Assembly (NCBI GenBank): GCA_021784815.1
Contig: JAJYHK010000001.1
Coordinates: 1-57,890, forward strand
Length of the DNA: 57,890 bases
Source: a bacterium
GTDB taxonomy: Bacteria; Patescibacteriota; Minisyncoccia; Phycocordibacterales; Phycocordibacteraceae
Direction: 5' to 3'
The translations under genes were made by a program, and so were the position numbers. Shown here piece after piece: positions 49,916 to 57,890 of the stretch. How positions within the stretch are numbered: the first letter of the stretch is position 1; each line of letters opens with the position of its first letter. Below the pieces are notes generated by a model. The model did no database searches. It was not told the DNA's origin and saw nothing but the letters and a program-made list of their open reading frames with translations.

Positions 49916-51300
49916 CTATTTTGCTTTCGCTGACGGCAAATCGAGCTTTATCGAGAGTTCCTTAAGCTGCTGGTCGCTTATGGGTGCAGGCGCACCTGCC
50001 ATAAGATCCTTTCCTTCTCCTGTTTTCGGAAAGGCGATGACCTCACGGATATTTGGCTGATTTTCGAGCAGCATGACAATGCGGTCAATGCCTGGCGCAA
50101 ATCCTCCGTGCGGCGGCGTGCCGTAGGTGAAAGCGTCGAGCATGTGACCAAAGCGTGCCTGCTGCTCTTCTTCGCTGATGTTGAGCAGCTTGAACACCTG
50201 CGCCTGCTCCGCGCGCTTATGGATACGAATCGAACCAGAAGAAAGCTCGTAGCCGTTGAGTACGAGATCGTAGGAGTTTGCGCGGATAGAGAACAGATCC
50301 TTGCCATTGAGGAATTTTTCGCGATCCTCCGGCTTTACTGAGCAGAAGGGGTGGTGCGCGGCTTGGATGGTTCCATCCTCAAGCTGCTCGAACATCGGGA
50401 AATCGACCACCCAGGCAAAAGCGAGCTCATTAGGATCGTTTTTGTTTTTGCGCAGATCGGGCTTGTCGTTCCCGTGCTTTTCCATCGATTCTGCGCAGGT
50501 AAGGCGCGGGAATGGGATCTGCGTTACATGCTTTTCCGGATAGAGCTGCTTTACAAGCTCGATGAACATCGCTTCGGTATAGGAAAGCACATCCTCCTGC
50601 TCGACAAACGACATTTCAAAGTCGAGCTGGGTGAATTCCGGCTGGCGGTCGCCGCGGGTATCCTCGTCGCGCATGCAACGGGCGATTTGGAAGTACCGCT
50701 CAATTTGAACTGCTGGGGCGATTGCGGAAGCACGTAGAACGTGCCAGGCTCAAGCCGGCTCGGCACCACGTATTCGCGGCTGCCTTCGGGCGTGCCCTTC
50801 ATCATAAGCGGCGTCTCGACCTCTACGAAGCCGTGCTCGTGCATATAGTTGCGGAAGAAGGTAATGATCTTGTCGCGCATGCGGATATTTCGTTGCATGC
50901 GAGCGTTGCGCAGATCGAGGTAGCGATATTTGAGCCGAACGCTTTCGTCTACTGGCAAAGTATCGCCGGTGATGTCGTACGGCATCGGTTCAGATTCGTT
51001 GAGGACTTCAATACTCATGATCTCAAGCTCGATGTCCCCGTTTTGCTTCTCGGGTTGGGCGTTCTTTTCGGGGCGCTTGTTCACCTTCCCTGCAATGCGT
51101 ACGACGTATTCGTTGCGGATATCCTTGGCGATCTCCATGGCCGGCGAGCCCGGGAGCACGACGCCCTGGACGTAGCCGGAGGCATCGCGGAAATCAAAAA
51201 AGACGAGCTTGCCCTGGTCGCGGCGGACGTCGACCCAGCCGGAAATACTCACATCCTGCCCTACCCTGTCGCCCAGTTCTCCTATCCATGTTCTCTCCAT
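49916..51300 (-). pseudogene. aspS: Aspartyl-tRNA synthetase interrupted by a frame-breaking deletion at about 50702
   Basis: The N-terminal frame (OB fold, motif 1, ...LPQSPQQFK) and the C-terminal frame (ERYFQIARCMRDEDTRGDRQPEFTQ..., motifs 2 and 3) are offset. Only 2 nt lie between the K and E codons, where canonical AspRS has about 8 residues. Confidence 0.8.
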
Positions 51301-52268: not shown

Positions 52269-52690
52269 GGGGAAAAGATACCACAATTCTCAGGTTTTTC
52301 GCTTGATTCGTCGGCGTAGACCAGTACGCTCTTCACGCTCGTGAGCGGCTCGAAAGTGAGCTCCAGGCGCTCGTGACGGCCGAATCGCTCCTCACGGACC
52401 AGATGGCCGCTCAAGTGCTCGGCCGTGAGCTCTACCAGGAGAAGATGCGTCGGGCGGCAGACCGACGGGTTGAGATCAAGAACCAGCTTGCTCAGATGGG
52501 CACACAGGGCCACCAACCGGTTGCTTCTTTCGAACGCCTCGCTCCAAAACGGAAATGTGGCGCAGTATCTATTCAGAAGCCCCTATGACATACTCGCCCG
52601 CACTCCTAAAAATGTGGATATTTCAGTAATGTGCGCCCTCTGGAACGAGATCAGAACGGTATTAGTTTAACTGGCGAGGGCTTGCTGGCT

Positions 52691-52711
52691 GTCTGGGACG
52701 ATGCTGGAACC
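52691..52711 (+). repeat. Island direct repeat copy 1: GTCTGGGACGATGCTGGAACC
   Basis: One of three same-orientation copies. 20/21 identical to copy 2 and 19/21 to copy 3. Confidence 0.85.
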
Positions 52712-52757
52712 TTCTTAGCTAGGGTCTGTGTTTCTTACAGTGGGTCCCGAACCCATT

Positions 52758-53603
52758 TTAGTACCGAAACGTAGCAATTGAGGCATTGAATATCGGCAAA
52801 TCAGTAGCCCAGGACTGCTCAAGGGAGGATACAAAAATCGCATATCCAGTTCCATCACTCAGAGCAATGAGTTCTATTCCATGAAATGGATATGCCTGTC
52901 CGTTAACTATGTAAGCGTAGGTAAATTCATACTCATACGCCGGCTTACCATTAAGTTCTGTCGTTCCGGAGTCCAGTATCCGCAGGTTTGATCCGCCCGG
53001 TGAGTGCTCTACGTTGTAGAGAACGCCACGGGAGTAGGTCTCAAGTGTATAGGAACCGGCGGGACCTGCCGAAATGGTCATCGCGCCGACGGTGTCTTGT
53101 GCTGGATCTTCAAAGTCGACATTTGAGCCGTCTGGATAGTGATTTATTGTCCAATCCTTCGGATACTGCGTACTAAATCCAGCTTTCTGGTCGATATACG
53201 GAGTGCCACTGAGACTAGAGGTAGTTGTATCTGAAGTTGAACTACTCACAAAGGGTTGGTCATTGTACGGAATTTGCGAGAGCGTACCCGATAGTGCCGC
53301 GTTTGGCCATTCTTTTATGACTGTTCGGACAACAAGGGAGCGCACGAAAAGGACGGCAAGTATTCCGATAATTAAGAGCGCGATTGATGAAATCCATTTC
53401 CACCTTTTTGAATGCTCACTTCCTTGGATATATTGAATGCCTCCGATTATGAGCACGGCGCCCACGGCTCCAATGAGACCTGCTAGCTGGGCTCCCATAA
53501 CAATTAGGGCAATGTATAGAACAAAAAGTCCGTATTTTTTCTGCCTATATACCTCTCTTATCGGATTCGGTTTCGGCGATGCTGACGGTTTGCTGTAGGA
53601 CAT
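52758..53603 (-). CDS. Membrane protein with a C-terminal PsbP/DcrB-like (DUF1795-like) domain
   Basis: Three hydrophobic helices, a Ser/Thr linker and a beta-rich C-terminus (FSTQYPKDWTI...GKPAYEYEFTY). The fold call is tentative. Confidence 0.5.
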   Translation of the reverse strand: MSYSKPSASPKPNPIREVYRQKKYGLFVLYIALIVMGAQLAGLIGAVGAVLIIGGIQYIQGSEHSKRWKWISSIALLIIGILAVLFVRSLVVRTVIKEWPNAALSGTLSQIPYNDQPFVSSSTSDTTTSSLSGTPYIDQKAGFSTQYPKDWTINHYPDGSNVDFEDPAQDTVGAMTISAGPAGSYTLETYSRGVLYNVEHSPGGSNLRILDSGTTELNGKPAYEYEFTYAYIVNGQAYPFHGIELIALSDGTGYAIFVSSLEQSWATDLPIFNASIATFRY

Positions 53604-53639
53604 AGGTAAGTTACTTATAAGGCTATCATAGCTTCCGCT

Positions 53640-53660
53640 GTCTGGGACGATGTTGGAACC
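53640..53660 (+). repeat. Island direct repeat copy 2: GTCTGGGACGATGTTGGAACC
   Basis: Lies between the divergent genes 52758..53603(-) and 53707..54030(+). Confidence 0.85.
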
Positions 53661-53706
53661 TTGATTCGGTTAGCAGCCCTATGTTGGGCGGTATACGCTT
53701 AGGTCT

Positions 53707-54030
53707 ATGAAGCCGCCCATTACCCCCTATCTTCTAGTCCCGTTCCTAATCCTTTGTGTCTGTTTATTTGATTTCAATAATTGGGGGATTCCTTTTGCAG
53801 CGCTTTCCATATTAAGTTTTCTTATAGAAATCAAGATTCGGTACGGCTCTTTATCTAGAGAGAGCATTGGGAAATTTTTTTACACCCCGATCAAGAAGTA
53901 CGACCTCATGGGCAATGAAATTATTGATACCAGCCCGAAGTTCTCCATGGCTTCTGGGGTGCTGATAATAGTTTTTGGCGGATTTGCCGTTATGGCACTT
54001 ATGGTTCTCTACTTTGCGTTTGTTAAATAG
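53707..54030 (+). CDS. Small integral membrane protein (107 aa)
   Basis: Three hydrophobic segments. Low GC. Confidence 0.45.
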   Translation: MKPPITPYLLVPFLILCVCLFDFNNWGIPFAALSILSFLIEIKIRYGSLSRESIGKFFYTPIKKYDLMGNEIIDTSPKFSMASGVLIIVFGGFAVMALMVLYFAFVK

Positions 54031-54057
54031 CGGCTGTCTGCTCACAGTTGAGTCTCG

Positions 54058-54345
54058 TCAGATGACTCTTGTCTCAAACATTAGAGCGACAATGACCATC
54101 CCCAGCAGAAAAATTCCTGCGATCACGTTCCCAATTATTGTGAGGCGTACGGCAATGCTTTCGCGCCAGTTAGTTTTGTCTCCATACCAACCGCTATATT
54201 GCTTAGCAAGCCACGGCCACCATCTCTGAATTAAGGGCATGCCAGTAGCCCGGTATTGAAGATAGGCAATTTCTTTTCTGTACAAAATAAGGCACGTCCC
54301 TAGGATGGCAAGGAGGCCAAGAACACAAATATCTTGCAAAGGCAT
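54058..54345 (-). CDS. Small integral membrane protein (95 aa)
   Basis: Two hydrophobic segments. CATAAT lies 7 nt upstream of the ATG. Confidence 0.45.
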   Translation of the reverse strand: MPLQDICVLGLLAILGTCLILYRKEIAYLQYRATGMPLIQRWWPWLAKQYSGWYGDKTNWRESIAVRLTIIGNVIAGIFLLGMVIVALMFETRVI

Positions 54346-54380
54346 TATCGTGATTATGACACGAAAACGATTGGCTGGCC

Positions 54381-54401
54381 GTCTGGGACGCTGTTGGAAC
54401 C
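54381..54401 (+). repeat. Island direct repeat copy 3: GTCTGGGACGCTGTTGGAACC
   Basis: Lies between the HEPN-like gene stop (54424) and the 95-aa gene start (54345). Confidence 0.85.
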
Positions 54402-54423
54402 ATAATCGGAGATGGCACGACTA

Positions 54424-55434
54424 TTACTCCTCGATTTCCTTAACGTCTTTTCTTGGCCCGTATTCCCTTGGGAACACGTGCTTTCGTTTCGGCACTACTG
54501 CGATATCGAGACTTGAATCAATTTTGAGATGCTCTTGTGAATATGCGACCTTTCTTGAAAGGCTGTCTGTTGCAATATCTTTTGCTTTAATCATACCAAC
54601 GCCCTTCTTCACTTGTCGGTGTTCCAATTTAACGATCCTTTCGAGAGTAGATGATCGAAGTCGCTCAAATCGTTCTAGATATTTTGGCAGGTCTTTGTAT
54701 TGAAGGTCTGAAATGAAGTACCGATGTACAGCTTTATTCCTGAATTCGTAGAGGGTGGATAGCTCTGCAAATTGCTTTTTTGATATAAATTTCTCATCAA
54801 GAGCTTTTTGATGAATTGCGCGCTCGCTTATGTATGTTTTTCCACTCTGGAATACCATGCTCTTTTCGTAATTTGGACTCTTATCGCGCAGTTGCTTGGA
54901 GAGTATGATCCCATATCTTAAATGCGCGTCTATGGTGGACGCGTAAAGAACCAGGCCTTCTAGTAAGCTGCCGTCTTCTCTCGCTTTTAATAGCAAGACA
55001 TTCGTGGCAAGGAAAGTGCGGAGAAAATTGCGAAGAGGATCTTGATGAAGTTCCTCCCTCAAATCTCGTTCCCTGATCTTTGGATATTTAGTAGAGGCCT
55101 TTTCCAAAGCATCCTTAAATTCTCGCGCCTCTGTTTTGAGAGCTTCTGTGATTTCGCCAGTGCCTGCAATAGAGGTCCCACCCTTAAAGTCATACACGCA
55201 CAATATCCCGTGGTCTGTTTCAAAAAATCTATGCCAAGTAACCTTATCATCTACCCATTTAAAGTCTTTAAACAGGTCGTCGTACGGACCGAAGACGACT
55301 TCCAGTATTTCAAAAATTAGCGCCGGTTTCACTGAGACTTTCTCAACTAACGAACCGCCTGATGGAGGGAGTTCCTTCACGACTTTGTAGTGCTTTGGGA
55401 ATGCACGTGCGAATCGTTTTGTGTGTCCGTACAT
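54424..55434 (-). CDS. HEPN-like protein (RNxxxH motif), candidate abortive-infection/toxin RNase
   Basis: ELSTLYEFRNKAVHRYF carries an R-N-x3-H (Rx4H) motif at the start of a predicted helix. It is preceded by helical segments (LLEGLVLYASTIDAHLRYGIIL). The N-terminal 130 aa or so are unassigned. Confidence 0.5.
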   Translation of the reverse strand: MYGHTKRFARAFPKHYKVVKELPPSGGSLVEKVSVKPALIFEILEVVFGPYDDLFKDFKWVDDKVTWHRFFETDHGILCVYDFKGGTSIAGTGEITEALKTEAREFKDALEKASTKYPKIRERDLREELHQDPLRNFLRTFLATNVLLLKAREDGSLLEGLVLYASTIDAHLRYGIILSKQLRDKSPNYEKSMVFQSGKTYISERAIHQKALDEKFISKKQFAELSTLYEFRNKAVHRYFISDLQYKDLPKYLERFERLRSSTLERIVKLEHRQVKKGVGMIKAKDIATDSLSRKVAYSQEHLKIDSSLDIAVVPKRKHVFPREYGPRKDVKEIEE

Positions 55435-55436
55435 TT

Positions 55437-55925
55437 TTAGTCAGGATCGGCATTTATGGCGAACCGCAGATATTTTCTAAAAAGTGCTTCGACGCTTTCG
55501 TCTTGATTAGCTAGCCATTCCTCGAGCGTCTCCATCTCTTTGGCAAGTCTTTCTCGCTCCTCGTCATTCGAAGGTCCTTTTTCAAGTTTATTGTGAATCA
55601 ATCTTAGGCGCAGTAAATTGTCTATAATTTTTTGTCTATAAGCGACAACTTCTTTCCCAAACAGGAATTCTGTATCGAGAGTATCAAATGTAAACTTAGA
55701 GAACTTTGTTAGATCAACTTTTGCCGTAATTGAAAAATCGACAAGTAAAGTCCTAAATGCATCGAATACTTTATAACGGCGATCAAATAAGCTGAGACGG
55801 AGTTGGTCTTTGTTTAGATAGTAGCCCGACCGGTTGATTTTGTAGTTTTGCCATGCGACATATGCGACCGAGGCCGCTATTCCTATTTGCGCGATAGCCG
55901 ATACAATATCAACCCATATTTTCAT
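55437..55925 (-). CDS. Hypothetical protein with an N-terminal TM helix (162 aa), coupled to the HEPN-like gene
   Basis: Its stop lies 2 nt before the downstream ATG. TATAAT lies 9 nt upstream of its own ATG. Confidence 0.5.
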   Translation of the reverse strand: MKIWVDIVSAIAQIGIAASVAYVAWQNYKINRSGYYLNKDQLRLSLFDRRYKVFDAFRTLLVDFSITAKVDLTKFSKFTFDTLDTEFLFGKEVVAYRQKIIDNLLRLRLIHNKLEKGPSNDEERERLAKEMETLEEWLANQDESVEALFRKYLRFAINADPD

Positions 55926-56019
55926 AACGTATAAATTATACGCCTAACCGGCTAGATTGGTTTTAGTGGGGCGAGGGCGTTATCATGTAATAGTTCGGAC
56001 ATATGAATAAAAGACCTAA

Positions 56020-56181
56020 ACCACTGGCTTTGGCCGCTGGCATGGTCGCAAATCGTCAGACATAGCAACCCCGTCATCAGGGCGTGTCTGACGTTGCGTA
56101 GGGAAACTTACGTAGGCCCGCAAGGGCTCCTGGTGGCGGGTTTTCTGTACCCGCTGCTAGGGATAATCACACTTCCCTACC
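56020..56181 (+). other. Hairpin-dense non-coding stretch (candidate structured RNA or 5' leader)
   Basis: 9-bp stem 56054-56062/56085-56093. GNRA hairpins CGTAGG-GAAA-CTTACG (56097-56112) and GCCC-GCAA-GGGC (56116-56127). GCGGG/CCCGC (56136-56154). TAGGG/CCCTA (56158-56179), which ends 2 nt before the ATG. Confidence 0.3.
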
Positions 56182-56505
56182 ATGCCTAAGAAAGTCCCCA
56201 CCGAGCAGACCGCAAAGCTCGCTGACGCCCTCCGGGCTCGGAATGTCCGCATTGCGGTCGAGCATTGGGATGGTCACAAGCATATAGATATTTTCGTGCC
56301 GGATGCCCGTCTCTATATCGAGGTGGATGGCCTCCAACATTTCGTAGACCCTGATCAGATACTTACGGACCTACGCCGCGACCACTTTTCAGACGGCGAC
56401 GACTTTTCCACCCTTCGTATCACGAATCAGCTCATAGACACGCACCTCGACGAGATAGCAGACGCGATTGCTGGGGTAGTAGCAAAGGAAAATCGCGCAG
56501 ATTGA
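56182..56505 (+). CDS. DUF559/Vsr-like (PD-(D/E)xK fold) endonuclease domain protein
   Basis: HIDIFVPDARLYIEVDGLQH...RRDHF...TLRITN matches the DUF559 core pattern (D...E-V-D-G..H). Confidence 0.6.
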   Translation: MPKKVPTEQTAKLADALRARNVRIAVEHWDGHKHIDIFVPDARLYIEVDGLQHFVDPDQILTDLRRDHFSDGDDFSTLRITNQLIDTHLDEIADAIAGVVAKENRAD

Positions 56506-56536
56506 CGCATTATTGAGACAGTGGTTCAATCCCGCC

Positions 56537-57412
56537 ATGACGCCGGGAGACAAGGGCATGCTTGATACGGTTAACCTCCTCGTGTTGCTTTTCCGTGCCC
56601 GGAAGCATGCTCCGGAGTTCGATGAAAAACAGCAGCACACTCTCACCGTTACAAAAGAACACCTTGCAAGCGCAGGTCTCACCATCCCCGTCTTCTCAAA
56701 TACGCTCAATATTCTAGCCGACAAAGGATATCTAACCGGCGTCGTGGTCTTCGAAGACTCCTACCACGCGAAGATTCGAGATGCCGTGACTGAGAAGAAC
56801 TTCAACGCACTGCTTGAGAGGTTCGACAGTACTGAGGCGGAGGTACTCGCGCAAAGGCTACAAGAAGCAGCTGTAGTTAATGTTGCAAAGGTTGCACCAC
56901 CGAATCTTCCAATGAGCAGAGAAATGCAGGAGGCGTTGGCGCAAGAGAGTCGCACACTCAGAGAGATGCTCAACGATAGCAGAGAGATGCTCGTGCGTCA
57001 TTCTGATCAGGATATTGCCATAGCAGTACTGCTGCCATTTCGTAGCATTGACCGGCTGCTTGAAAAGATGAATTCCGGTCTATCCTTCGAGGAAGTGCAG
57101 GACACGGGTATCTGGTACGATGCCCAGCGGTATGAATTTCATTTTGAGGACGAGGTTATGAGCACCGCGAATCGTGGAACTGCCACACTCGTACACCCCA
57201 TTCTCAATGCCCTCTTTAACACTGGTATCGACTACGTAGCGGAGTATTCAGACCTGCCTGACTTTGACGACAATGACCGTGCAAAAGAAAACAAACGATA
57301 TGCTGATGCCGTTCGACATTTCATTACAAAGTACGCTTCTCTGGCAGAGGTTTTCAAAGTCTACTCAGACCGCGTGGAGCTTCTAGAGCCATACCGCAGC
57401 GAGATTCACTAA
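56537..57412 (+). CDS. Hypothetical protein (about 290 aa)
   Basis: Long ORF. The track start at 56513 is a TTG, and ATGs occur at 56537 and 56558. No family recognised. Confidence 0.5.
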   Translation: MTPGDKGMLDTVNLLVLLFRARKHAPEFDEKQQHTLTVTKEHLASAGLTIPVFSNTLNILADKGYLTGVVVFEDSYHAKIRDAVTEKNFNALLERFDSTEAEVLAQRLQEAAVVNVAKVAPPNLPMSREMQEALAQESRTLREMLNDSREMLVRHSDQDIAIAVLLPFRSIDRLLEKMNSGLSFEEVQDTGIWYDAQRYEFHFEDEVMSTANRGTATLVHPILNALFNTGIDYVAEYSDLPDFDDNDRAKENKRYADAVRHFITKYASLAEVFKVYSDRVELLEPYRSEIH

Positions 57413-57454
57413 ACCGTTCACCGGCGTTCACCTCCCGGGTTCTATCGTGGTTGC

Positions 57455-57700
57455 GTGGATACCGAACAGGAGTACTTCCAATTCTCCAAACCGCTTAAAC
57501 TGCGGTTGATTGAGTATTTCCGCAAGGAATACGACCTCGACATTAACGACGAGGAGGCTGATCTGTTCCTTGCTTCCCTTGCTGCCCTGTATGACGCGCT
57601 CTCGAAGGCGCCCGCCACCGTGGACGCGGCGGCGGCGCGTGAGCGGGACGCGCGGCCCGGTGCGGGCGGCTCTGACTTGATATCCCCTCATAGTTGTTAA
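57455..57700 (+). CDS. Hypothetical protein (81 aa)
   Basis: ORF with a GTG start. Acidic N-terminal half and Ala/Arg-rich tail. Confidence 0.35.
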   Translation: MDTEQEYFQFSKPLKLRLIEYFRKEYDLDINDEEADLFLASLAALYDALSKAPATVDAAAARERDARPGAGGSDLISPHSC

Positions 57701-57730
57701 GGAAGCGTATGCCTTTCGTATATCGACAAA

Positions 57731-57890
57731 ATGGAAACCTCGTCGAAATTACCGAGACAGAAAAAGCCCCGACTAAAGTACGGGTACGTCCCGATCATAT
57801 ACGACGAAGGGTACGTCCTCTACACCGGGCTCGGCGACGCGATAACCTTGTCCGCACCAGGCAAATTTGTGTGCGGCGCGCGCCCGGAAA
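57731..57890 (+). CDS. 3'-truncated hypothetical ORF running off the window
   Basis: The frame from the ATG at 57731 reads ...KYGYVPIIYDEGYVLYTGLGDAITLSAPGKFVCGARPE with high GC3. An alternative ATG at 57709 is in another frame. Confidence 0.2.
   Translation, partial: METSSKLPRQKKPRLKYGYVPIIYDEGYVLYTGLGDAITLSAPGKFVCGARPE

Follow-up and report, generated by a model that had tools for sequence, protein, structure and literature searches.

What are the three near-identical short repeats that divide one part of a Patescibacteria genome fragment into gene-sized pieces? The stretch of DNA analysed here (the window) comprises positions 1 to 57,890 of contig JAJYHK010000001.1 (assembly GCA_021784815.1; source contig 58,454 bp). 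A preliminary description, made from the window sequence, took the repeats for att-like recombination scars of serial cassette insertion, or a dispersed mobile repeat, rather than promoter elements. We propose that they are attC-like sites, here called type B, of mobile, self-expressed single-gene cassettes that were inserted site-specifically at docking sites resembling the 3' end of tRNA-Gln, and we put the probability of this reading at roughly 60%. That site-specific recombination is the mechanism we consider probable, though not strongly so.

A search for GTCTGGGACGMTGYTGGAACC with up to three mismatches returns three matches in the 57.9-kb window, all on the plus strand (52691-52711, 53640-53660 and 54381-54401), and none in 100 dinucleotide-preserving shuffles, so that none is expected by chance. 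A profile built from 150 family members recovers these three sites only, and neither search finds a copy among the window's core genes (52 kb). The positions, the common strand and the spacings of 949 and 741 bp first reported are thus confirmed, as is the statement that all copies are intergenic and bracket one gene (52758-53603, minus strand) and then a convergent pair (53707-54030, plus; 54058-54345, minus). The last copy, described as sitting just downstream of an operon for a transmembrane (TM) and a HEPN protein, indeed lies 22 nt past the stop codon of 54424-55434 (minus strand).

The repeat is longer than the 21 bp originally assigned to it. A repeat finder extends the block common to the three copies to 26 nt, and the full site measures ~36 nt, reading TTGCTGGCnGTCTGGGACGATGTTGGAACCTTTnT on the F strand (F is the plus strand of the window and R its complement). 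All three copies are type B sites on the plus strand. Copy 1 (52682-52717; TTGCTGGCT GTCTGGGACGATGCTGGAACC TTCTTA; nhmmer E=1e-10) is the terminal site of the window array and lies 44 nt from the edge of an island described below. Copy 2 (53637-53666) has an intact arm and a degenerate core-side flank, with GCTTCCGCT in place of TTGCTGGCn, and copy 3 (54371-54406) reads TTGGCTGGCC GTCTGGGACGCTGTTGGAACC ATAAT. The upstream extension suspected earlier is real and conserved family-wide, being present as TTGCTGGCn in copies 1 and 3 and degenerate in copy 2. The WTnATTCGG-like similarity downstream of copies 2 and 3 is no family feature; only a T-rich TTTnT is conserved there. Beyond the site the flanks of the three copies do not align, and this confinement of similarity to ~36 nt argues for a short site rather than a transposon-like element.

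The site recurs well beyond the window. An exact-pattern scan of one genome per species returned at least 118 blocks, nearly all from Paceibacterota (Parcubacteria) and other Patescibacteria metagenome-assembled genomes, often with 2-5 copies per 8-kb genome block, and a metagenome scan returned at least 120 contigs with the motif, again nearly all Patescibacteria. A 41-nt site profile identified 257 sites in 96 blocks of the candidate phyla radiation (CPR) plus the window, and an independent metagenome set contributed 100 further CPR-like contigs with 223 sites (L-numbers below are locus labels of the fetched genome and metagenome blocks). The family spans one clade of Paceibacterota. Its R-strand consensus is AnAAA GGTTCCAACATCGTCCCAGAC nGCCAGCAA(T), and the flanks outside the searched 21-mer are 76-94% conserved over 145 CPR occurrences. 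The site is near-invariant even though its hosts range from 34 to 60% GC and have core DNA of no more than 63-75% identity, and this strong conservation argues that the sites are not inert scars. Frequent as the motif is in other genomes, it always stands in a cassette context, which speaks against a generic repeat. No Rfam 15 covariance model matched the repeats even at E<=10, and in the full-text literature, of which coverage was incomplete, we found neither the sequence nor a description of such CPR arrays.

Some matches lie outside this family. Phage or plasmid attP sites were considered and set aside, as 34 of 38 viral-contig matches (L121-L157) share one high-GC context, GTCTGGGACGATGTTGGAACCTTCGACGG, leaving four weak profile matches. 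Rhodobacterales blocks such as L004, L024 and L031 likewise contain the exact 21-mer in this high-GC context, apparently within coding sequence, and would contaminate naive motif counts. From their sequence, we read these matches in alphaproteobacterial and prophage-like contigs as conserved coding sequence and an unrelated coincidence.

Where several copies occur together they form arrays of a single polarity: all copies are co-oriented in 127 of 128 multi-copy loci (64/65 from GTDB genomes and 63/63 from metagenomes). The 156 inter-site segments measure 161-2367 bp, with a median of ~470, and mostly contain one open reading frame (ORF). Relative to the site, single-gene cassettes point either way (69 R, 66 F), bearing out the earlier remark that repeat orientation is independent of gene orientation. 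Each orientation class has a sharply peaked start and stop geometry, and both are therefore taken to be real. F genes start 45-53 nt after GGAACC, and a hairpin terminator and T-run separate their ends from the next core, 55-77 nt further on; R genes begin 25-32 nt past the core flank and stop 0-4 nt short of GGTTCC, via the TAA within AnAAAGGTTCC. Uniform polarity combined with ~50:50 gene direction implies that site orientation belongs to the array and not to the genes. Replication strand was rejected as the cause of polarity, since C-richness of the F strand, seen in 84 of 114 loci, is a bias rather than a rule, with the window in the minority.

The cargo consists of small accessory genes. 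Among 150 cassette ORFs, the best 25 of 57 Pfam families include HAD, NUDIX, GNAT, PIG-L, cupin, SDR, histidine phosphatase and RidA. The majority of cassette proteins match no Pfam family, and a simple hydropathy-window heuristic places a hydrophobic segment in 41 of 164 cassette ORFs. Arrays in hosts above 52% GC average 49% GC, against 54.5% for the host, and those in hosts below 48% GC equal their hosts.

The arrays have a preferred end, and it is related to tRNA-Gln. ARAGORN finds tRNA-Gln genes beside arrays in 13 blocks, each on the F-downstream side and on the opposite strand, and the 3' end of this tRNA (AGGTTCGATCCCTAGTCTCCCAGCaat) resembles the R-strand site. A 23-mer of that end, searched with up to four mismatches, has 44 matches in the GTDB blocks, comprising 10 real tRNA-Gln genes and 34 isolated fragments. 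All 44, together with 29 of 29 matches in the metagenome contigs, lie at the same pole with the same polarity (73/73). These type A sites stand one cassette length (142-1531 nt) from the last B site, and 56 of the 77 arrays whose end falls inside the fetched block terminate in one. Array heads are real tRNA-Gln genes in ~13 loci and mimics of the tRNA-Gln 3' end in >60. Mimics are 25-30 nt long (TAGGTTCGATmCCTAGTCTGCCAGCAAT) and frequently merge with a core-gene stop codon; in 34 of the 76 type A sites, the TAG of TAGGTTC terminates a long core ORF. Across several species, homologues of a core gene have the A site in an identical position but are followed by different arrays, suggesting that the docking sites are old and stable.

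Aligned with MAFFT, the A and B sites differ by a single 5-nt indel and share 12 invariant and 6 near-invariant columns, having in common GGTTC and the right-hand core AG.CT.CCAGCAAT. Judged by this alignment, the B repeat is homologous to the tRNA-Gln 3' end or its mimic. The internal and terminal repeats of the arrays are a diverged tRNA-Gln derivative, not a tRNA copy. At three loci (L003 6285-6593, L038 7040-7194 and L160 7822-7943) a tRNA-Gln is followed after ~30-60 nt by one or two partial copies of itself, running from anticodon arm to 3' end and separated by a conserved spacer (acagcacatttcactc...). These partial copies suggest a second, different integration system, which may use the anticodon-loop region of this same tRNA.

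Comparison of loci shows that the cassettes are modular units whose boundaries fall inside the site. L045 and L179 have a 485-bp cassette in common (99% identical), which abuts type A in L045; at that point L179 runs into a type B site and at least three further cassettes. The two loci part at ...TTTGATTGCTGG|CAGACTAGG (A) versus |GTGTCTGGGACG (B), a junction elsewhere written ...ATTGCTGG|CAGACTAGG. L162 and L248 have in common a cassette, 97-98% identical, that stands behind a genuine tRNA-Gln in L162 and behind another site in L248; at its far end they are identical through GGTTCCAACATCGTCCCAGAC (CCCAGAC) and then read GGCC versus CCCC into unrelated neighbours. According to these junctions, the units are bounded within the 2-4 nt that separate the arm (…CCCAGAC / …CCTAGTC) from CCAGCAA. 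Further site-bounded cassettes are 82-88% identical between genomes, for example in L009/L081, L028/L062, L037/L103 and L056/L090, and L032 and L118 carry the same first cassette, beside type A, at two different chromosomal loci. A histogram of the ends of high-scoring segment pairs was blurred by the conservation of the site itself.

Strain comparison likewise reveals variation at the level of whole cassettes, L018 having one site and CAMTWI010000004 six between flanks that are 92-94% identical. L018 also contains a 141-nt 'empty' cassette (1397-1537) between a B and an A site, in which a promoter-like element, an 8-codon ORF and a terminator hairpin are kept; it appears to be a cassette whose gene was deleted.

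The mechanism that we envisage is recombination of a circular intermediate, catalysed by a trans-acting, probably tyrosine-type recombinase. What the comparisons establish is the architecture and polarity of the arrays, their homology to tRNA-Gln, the modular boundaries and the cassette differences between strains; recombination itself, its circular intermediate and its enzyme are inferred. Read along the R strand, an array begins with a type A head (tRNA-Gln 3' end or mimic), followed by a cassette, a B site (AnAAAGGTTCCAACATCGTCCCAGAC nGCCAGCAAT), the next cassette, another B site and so on, up to core DNA. A circular cassette with one B site would recombine with A or with another B, crossing over within the few bases that separate the arm (…CCCAGAC / …CCTAGTC) from CCAGCAAT. 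The A site would stay at the head of the array and each cassette would keep its own B arm, which would yield direct repeats of the same polarity regardless of gene orientation. Each cassette would be an autonomous expression unit. F-strand genes would use TTGGAA as -35, then an extended -10, a Shine-Dalgarno sequence, the ORF and a hairpin terminator; R-strand genes would have an extended -10 and a near-leaderless ATG after the core, and their ORF would stop in the TAA of the B arm. The three-site array in the window forms the distal end of a strain-variable island of at least 5.8 kb in the 3' end of another tRNA, and as this island also has a rolling-circle Rep, an array may travel on a replicon.

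A contribution of the site to transcription, dismissed in the preliminary description, is in fact indicated. A TAnnnT -10 element lies 16-19 nt after the TTGGAA at 104 of 422 sites (~25%), 75 of them with a TG extension, against ~15-25 in shifted controls (54 at one nearest offset), an enrichment next to the site of about 4-5-fold. The conserved module ...TGnTAnGnTCTGTCTAGA, followed by a Shine-Dalgarno sequence and ATG, is carried by 62 sites. On the R side a -10 is followed by ATG within 3-14 nt at 131 sites, with a peak 15-16 nt after CCCAGAC. On the strength of these spacings, the TTGGAA of the site is a predicted -35 for many cassette genes. Sites nevertheless occur in both orientations relative to genes, some of them between two gene 3' ends, and a promoter role cannot account for the polarity, the A end or the modularity. 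The att-like core of the earlier proposal stands, supported by polarity, the tRNA-Gln end, exchanged cassettes and varying cassette numbers, and its exclusion of promoter function does not. Two specific promoter types were rejected. Sigma-54 (-24/-12) and extracytoplasmic function (GGAAC...CGTC) promoters misfit in spacing or at the -12/-10, and the sequence downstream is not conserved; a simple R-strand promoter, suggested by copies 2 and 3 lying 36-37 nt upstream of minus-strand ATGs, is contradicted by the opposite arrangement in L010 and by the 50:50 distribution in the family.

Several observations weigh against the site-specific insertion of mobile cassettes, foremost those on the enzyme. 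Clustering of the 835 ORFs neighbouring arrays yielded no recurrent family and no linked recombinase, and there is no recombinase family in the best 25 of 57 Pfam families among the 150 cassette ORFs. Probing ~197 loci by phmmer with E. coli XerD and Hin sequences, which offers a lead rather than a test, returned only three orthologous Xer genes (70-77% identity, Pfam Phage_integrase), none at a type A end; the tyrosine recombinases near arrays are thus limited to three genes of housekeeping type. In two of the three a B site follows the stop codon by 7-13 nt, but four further genomes with the same rpsO-xer-xthA synteny have no site after xer, so that the adjacency holds in 2 of 7 genomes. The xer-xthA gap (L017, L238, L280-L283) contains 0-3 small genes that differ by genome, with type B sites in two only, and the Xer-type gene beside it is 78-100% identical among the listed homologues.

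Others concern the products, the site and the sampling. No circular or excised cassettes were found among assembled contigs, the search covering contigs and not reads, and no joints at the repeats occur in the assembled Logan contigs of the window's own samples. Apparent joints on a Hainich locus were cross-matches from other motif-bearing contigs (motif bin at 15x depth) and are uninformative. The B site has no hairpin, inverted repeat or dyad, which is unusual for the cores of tyrosine or serine recombinases and unlike attC; a manual check of the consensus gave 8 of 17 complementary pairs, the half-sites being direct repeats. Additionally, 21 of the 77 arrays, including that of the window, have no type A end, no cassette was found duplicated within a genome, and the genes were called crudely as longest ORFs. 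Finally, the loci were picked by exact motif match, which makes the conservation of the 21-nt core partly a matter of construction.

Some of these points speak for the main rival, homologous exchange between conserved boundary modules. Here the repeat would be a conserved boundary and expression module, made of a terminator end and a promoter -35 and perhaps bound by a lineage-specific DNA-binding protein. Once DNA had been taken up, RecA would exchange cassettes by homologous recombination at the ~36-bp repeats; competence-like machinery is present in CPR bacteria. Neither the missing linked recombinase nor the lack of dyad symmetry would then be surprising, and a site that provides a -35 and abuts -10 elements on both sides would be expected; within one genome, moreover, the sites and the adjacent promoter modules are the only repeated sequences. 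Even the break-points inside conserved repeats would be expected from homologous exchange as well. We still judge this explanation unlikely. RecA exchange leaves unaccounted for the tRNA-Gln-derived site at one fixed pole (56/77 arrays, 73/73 polarity), the homology of the repeat to the tRNA-Gln 3' end, its near-invariance across hosts of 34-60% GC with core DNA 63-75% identical, and the indifference of site orientation to the genes. Moreover, a length of 36 bp comes close to the minimum that RecA needs for efficient exchange.

A purely transcriptional regulatory site, whether operator, activator site or promoter for a special sigma factor or RNA polymerase, would co-regulate small accessory genes, and we consider it improbable. 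Many sites are flanked on both sides by gene 3' ends or terminators (as in L011, and at window copy 1 on the F side), and the window's 52 kb of core genes contain no copy. Array-wide polarity with 50:50 gene orientation, the tRNA-Gln link and modularity at the level of the cassette are likewise unaccounted for. What speaks for regulation is the internal make-up of the site, which contains the TGG half-sites CTGGCAG, CTGGGAC and TTGGAAC at spacings of 8 and 11 nt, like tandem winged-helix sites, and has its centre near -40 of predicted promoters in both directions.

More doubtful still is an element acting in R-strand transcripts, as tRNA-like 'punctuation' or as a processing or stability signal after stop codons. 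R-directed ORFs do stop 0-4 nt ahead of the B site, core ORFs stop in the TAG of the A site, and the A site contains a T-arm hairpin. The B site, however, has no predicted structure, its consensus folding at -1.0 to -4.1 kcal/mol, weaker than shuffles (z about +0.9 to +1.0), and no Rfam match; one cassette in two is transcribed from the opposite strand and has a terminator of its own, and the modular exchange of cassettes would go unexplained. A generic dispersed element of the repetitive extragenic palindromic (REP) or miniature inverted-repeat transposable element (MITE) kind, or a chance repeat, akin to the dispersed mobile repeat first suggested, is hardly credible despite the many intergenic copies per genome, as no copies are expected by chance, palindromes, terminal inverted repeats and target duplications are lacking, similarity stops at ~36 nt, and the strictly ordered context and polarity, with arrays, A ends and modular cassettes, already contradict it.

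Set beside known systems, the proposed insertion of cassettes at tRNA-Gln-like sites resembles integrons in outline. The arrays are one-directional and consist of mostly single-ORF cassettes; a primary site of a separate kind marks the head, and every cassette is followed by a site that it carries itself. The arrays contain small accessory enzymes (GNAT, NUDIX) and many orphan proteins, and stop codons run into the site. The extra cassettes of L179 relative to L045 are on the head (type A) side, as head insertion would give. However, the B site is a conserved, unstructured 36-bp sequence, whereas attC is an imperfect palindrome that forms a single-strand hairpin (R''-L''/L'-R') and is conserved in structure. 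No integrase gene lies beside the array, in contrast to intI, which is adjacent to attI. The cassettes have their own promoters and terminators and face both directions, unlike the promoterless, co-oriented integron cassettes served by a common Pc promoter, and there are many arrays per small genome, headed by tRNA-Gln ends or mimics.

Prochlorococcus tycheposons, which are kilobases long and have their own tyrosine recombinase and a replication module (bioRxiv 10.1101/2020.12.28.424599), offer a second comparison. Like tycheposons, the arrays would dock at a tRNA 3' end, with repeated insertion at the same site pushing older DNA outward and partial-tRNA repeats at the boundaries, and both systems form islands of flexible genes in streamlined genomes. 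The units described here differ in being single genes of ~0.3-1 kb without integrase, in having internal repeats that are a distinct conserved derivative with a 5-nt insertion rather than copies of the tRNA end, and in docking mimics that also lie at the stop codons of many core genes. Xer modules (integrative mobile elements exploiting Xer, and Acinetobacter pdif) also combine small gene modules with short conserved sites and a recombinase encoded elsewhere, there the host Xer. Yet dif and pdif have two inverted 11-bp arms around a 6-bp spacer, with pdif orientation alternating, whereas the B site is asymmetric and all copies are direct, and an Xer gene adjoins a site in only 2 of 7 genomes. 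In its working, the system is comparable to an integron or to a tandem island of the tRNA-att kind, yet it fails the defining tests of both: a hairpin attC is lacking, as is an integrase beside the array or on the element, and the cassettes are self-expressed and face both ways.

CPR bacteria (Patescibacteria) have tiny genomes with few recognisable mobile elements, and we know of no cultured genetics for them. The finding bears on how these organisms gain and shuffle accessory genes. We see even odds that Paceibacterota possess a gene-capture system of their own, parallel to integrons in function but different in construction, with sequence-defined 36-bp tRNA-Gln-derived sites, mimics at core stop codons that give many arrays per genome of ~1 Mb or less, self-expressed cassettes and an unlinked recombinase, possibly the highly conserved Xer-type enzyme. 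Arrays could also ride rolling-circle replicons, as the window island hints. If it exists, integron-like gene capture evolved independently from a tRNA-att system. An easily searchable 36-bp site that marks hundreds of cassettes provides a handle on a flexible gene pool of small enzymes, membrane proteins and orphans. It also defines a candidate recombination system with a specified substrate pair (A x B), and the docking sites and promoters may be usable in future genetic tools for these organisms.

In the window, cassette 1 (52718-53636) contains the single minus-strand gene 52758-53603, whose product is PsbP-like (PF01789, E=2e-9) with an N-terminal membrane segment; a homologue search returned the protein itself and nothing else. 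A -10-like TATGAT (53625-53630, minus strand) lies just inside site 2, ahead of the ATG at 53603. Cassette 2 (53667-54370) holds the convergent pair, both genes encoding small membrane proteins. For 53707-54030 (plus), a promoter-like TTAGCA-16-TATACG at 53670-53697 follows copy 2 and precedes the ATG at 53707; for 54058-54345 (minus), a CATAAT -10 at 54353-54358 lies 7 nt ahead of the ATG, a leaderless-type arrangement. The segment beyond the last site (54407-55925) is a minus-strand operon of 55437-55925 (162 aa; N-terminal membrane/coiled-coil, faint Abi_alpha match) and 54424-55434 (336 aa; HEPN-like, with an RNKAVH (Rx4H) motif and a HepT-like match at E=7e-4, below the Pfam cut-off). From these sequence features the operon looks like an abortive-infection or toxin-like pair. 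Past copy 3, neither a further site nor a tRNA-Gln-like end (sought at up to eight mismatches) occurs before the contig end.

These genes belong to a larger strain-variable insertion. From ~52.6 kb onward GC content is 42-46% (46% in the array), against ~58% in the remaining window, and in the mine-drainage run that holds the contig depth is ~18-35x in the core beside the island and ~4-9x in the island (52610-57890). A variant assembly contig, from an island-free strain, agrees with the window as far as 52637 and continues with GGGTTGGATTCGAACCAACGTA, which is a tRNA T-arm in reverse complement. The left island edge (52630-52637, minus strand) is marked by GGCGCACA, a displaced tRNA 3' end, coinciding with a loose contig end at 52637 and the drop in depth. 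The variant contig, the coverage drop and this remnant together indicate that all of this stretch, at least 5.8 kb long, was inserted into a tRNA 3' end and varies between strains.

Besides the three-site array and the TM and HEPN pair, the island contains a LOOT RNA, a DUF559 endonuclease-like gene, two genes without known function and a rolling-circle Rep. The LOOT RNA (56013-56128, plus strand; full-length Rfam match to RF03000 at 70.2 bits, gathering score 46.4) sits between the TM-HEPN operon and the DUF559 gene, and no homologue was found by sequence in other array loci. When island proteins were compared with other arrays, a homologue emerged for the DUF559 protein alone, in L100. The gene for the rolling-circle replication initiator starts within the window (57709-57890, plus strand; PF23343 at 50.5 bits, cut-off 27.8; phrog_3419) and runs off it, encoding 245 aa in the full contig (L119 13-750), in the same low-coverage island as the array. 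Upstream of it lie ORFs of 81 and 291 aa without known function and a DUF559/HNH-like ORF of 107 aa. The 5.8 kb available show neither an integrase nor transfer genes, the right end lying beyond the contig. The island may represent a rolling-circle plasmid or a phage-like element that has integrated, and the array here would be carried inside a larger integrative, possibly replicative, element. In this respect the window island, unlike the family as a whole, recalls pSAM2-type elements in its tRNA 3'-end insertion and rolling-circle Rep (weak RepSA match; PF23343 above cut-off), and differs from them in the integrase and transfer genes missing from the visible part.

Two minor features of the window may be added. 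The aspartyl-tRNA synthetase gene at 49916-51300 (minus strand) is split into overlapping ORFs at 50551-51300 and 49916-50674 (249 and 224 aa), which could be a frameshift, a pseudogene or an assembly error. The final ~10 bases of the window (57879-57890) read …gcgcgcccggaaa, where the ENA contig has …gcgtgtctgctgg.

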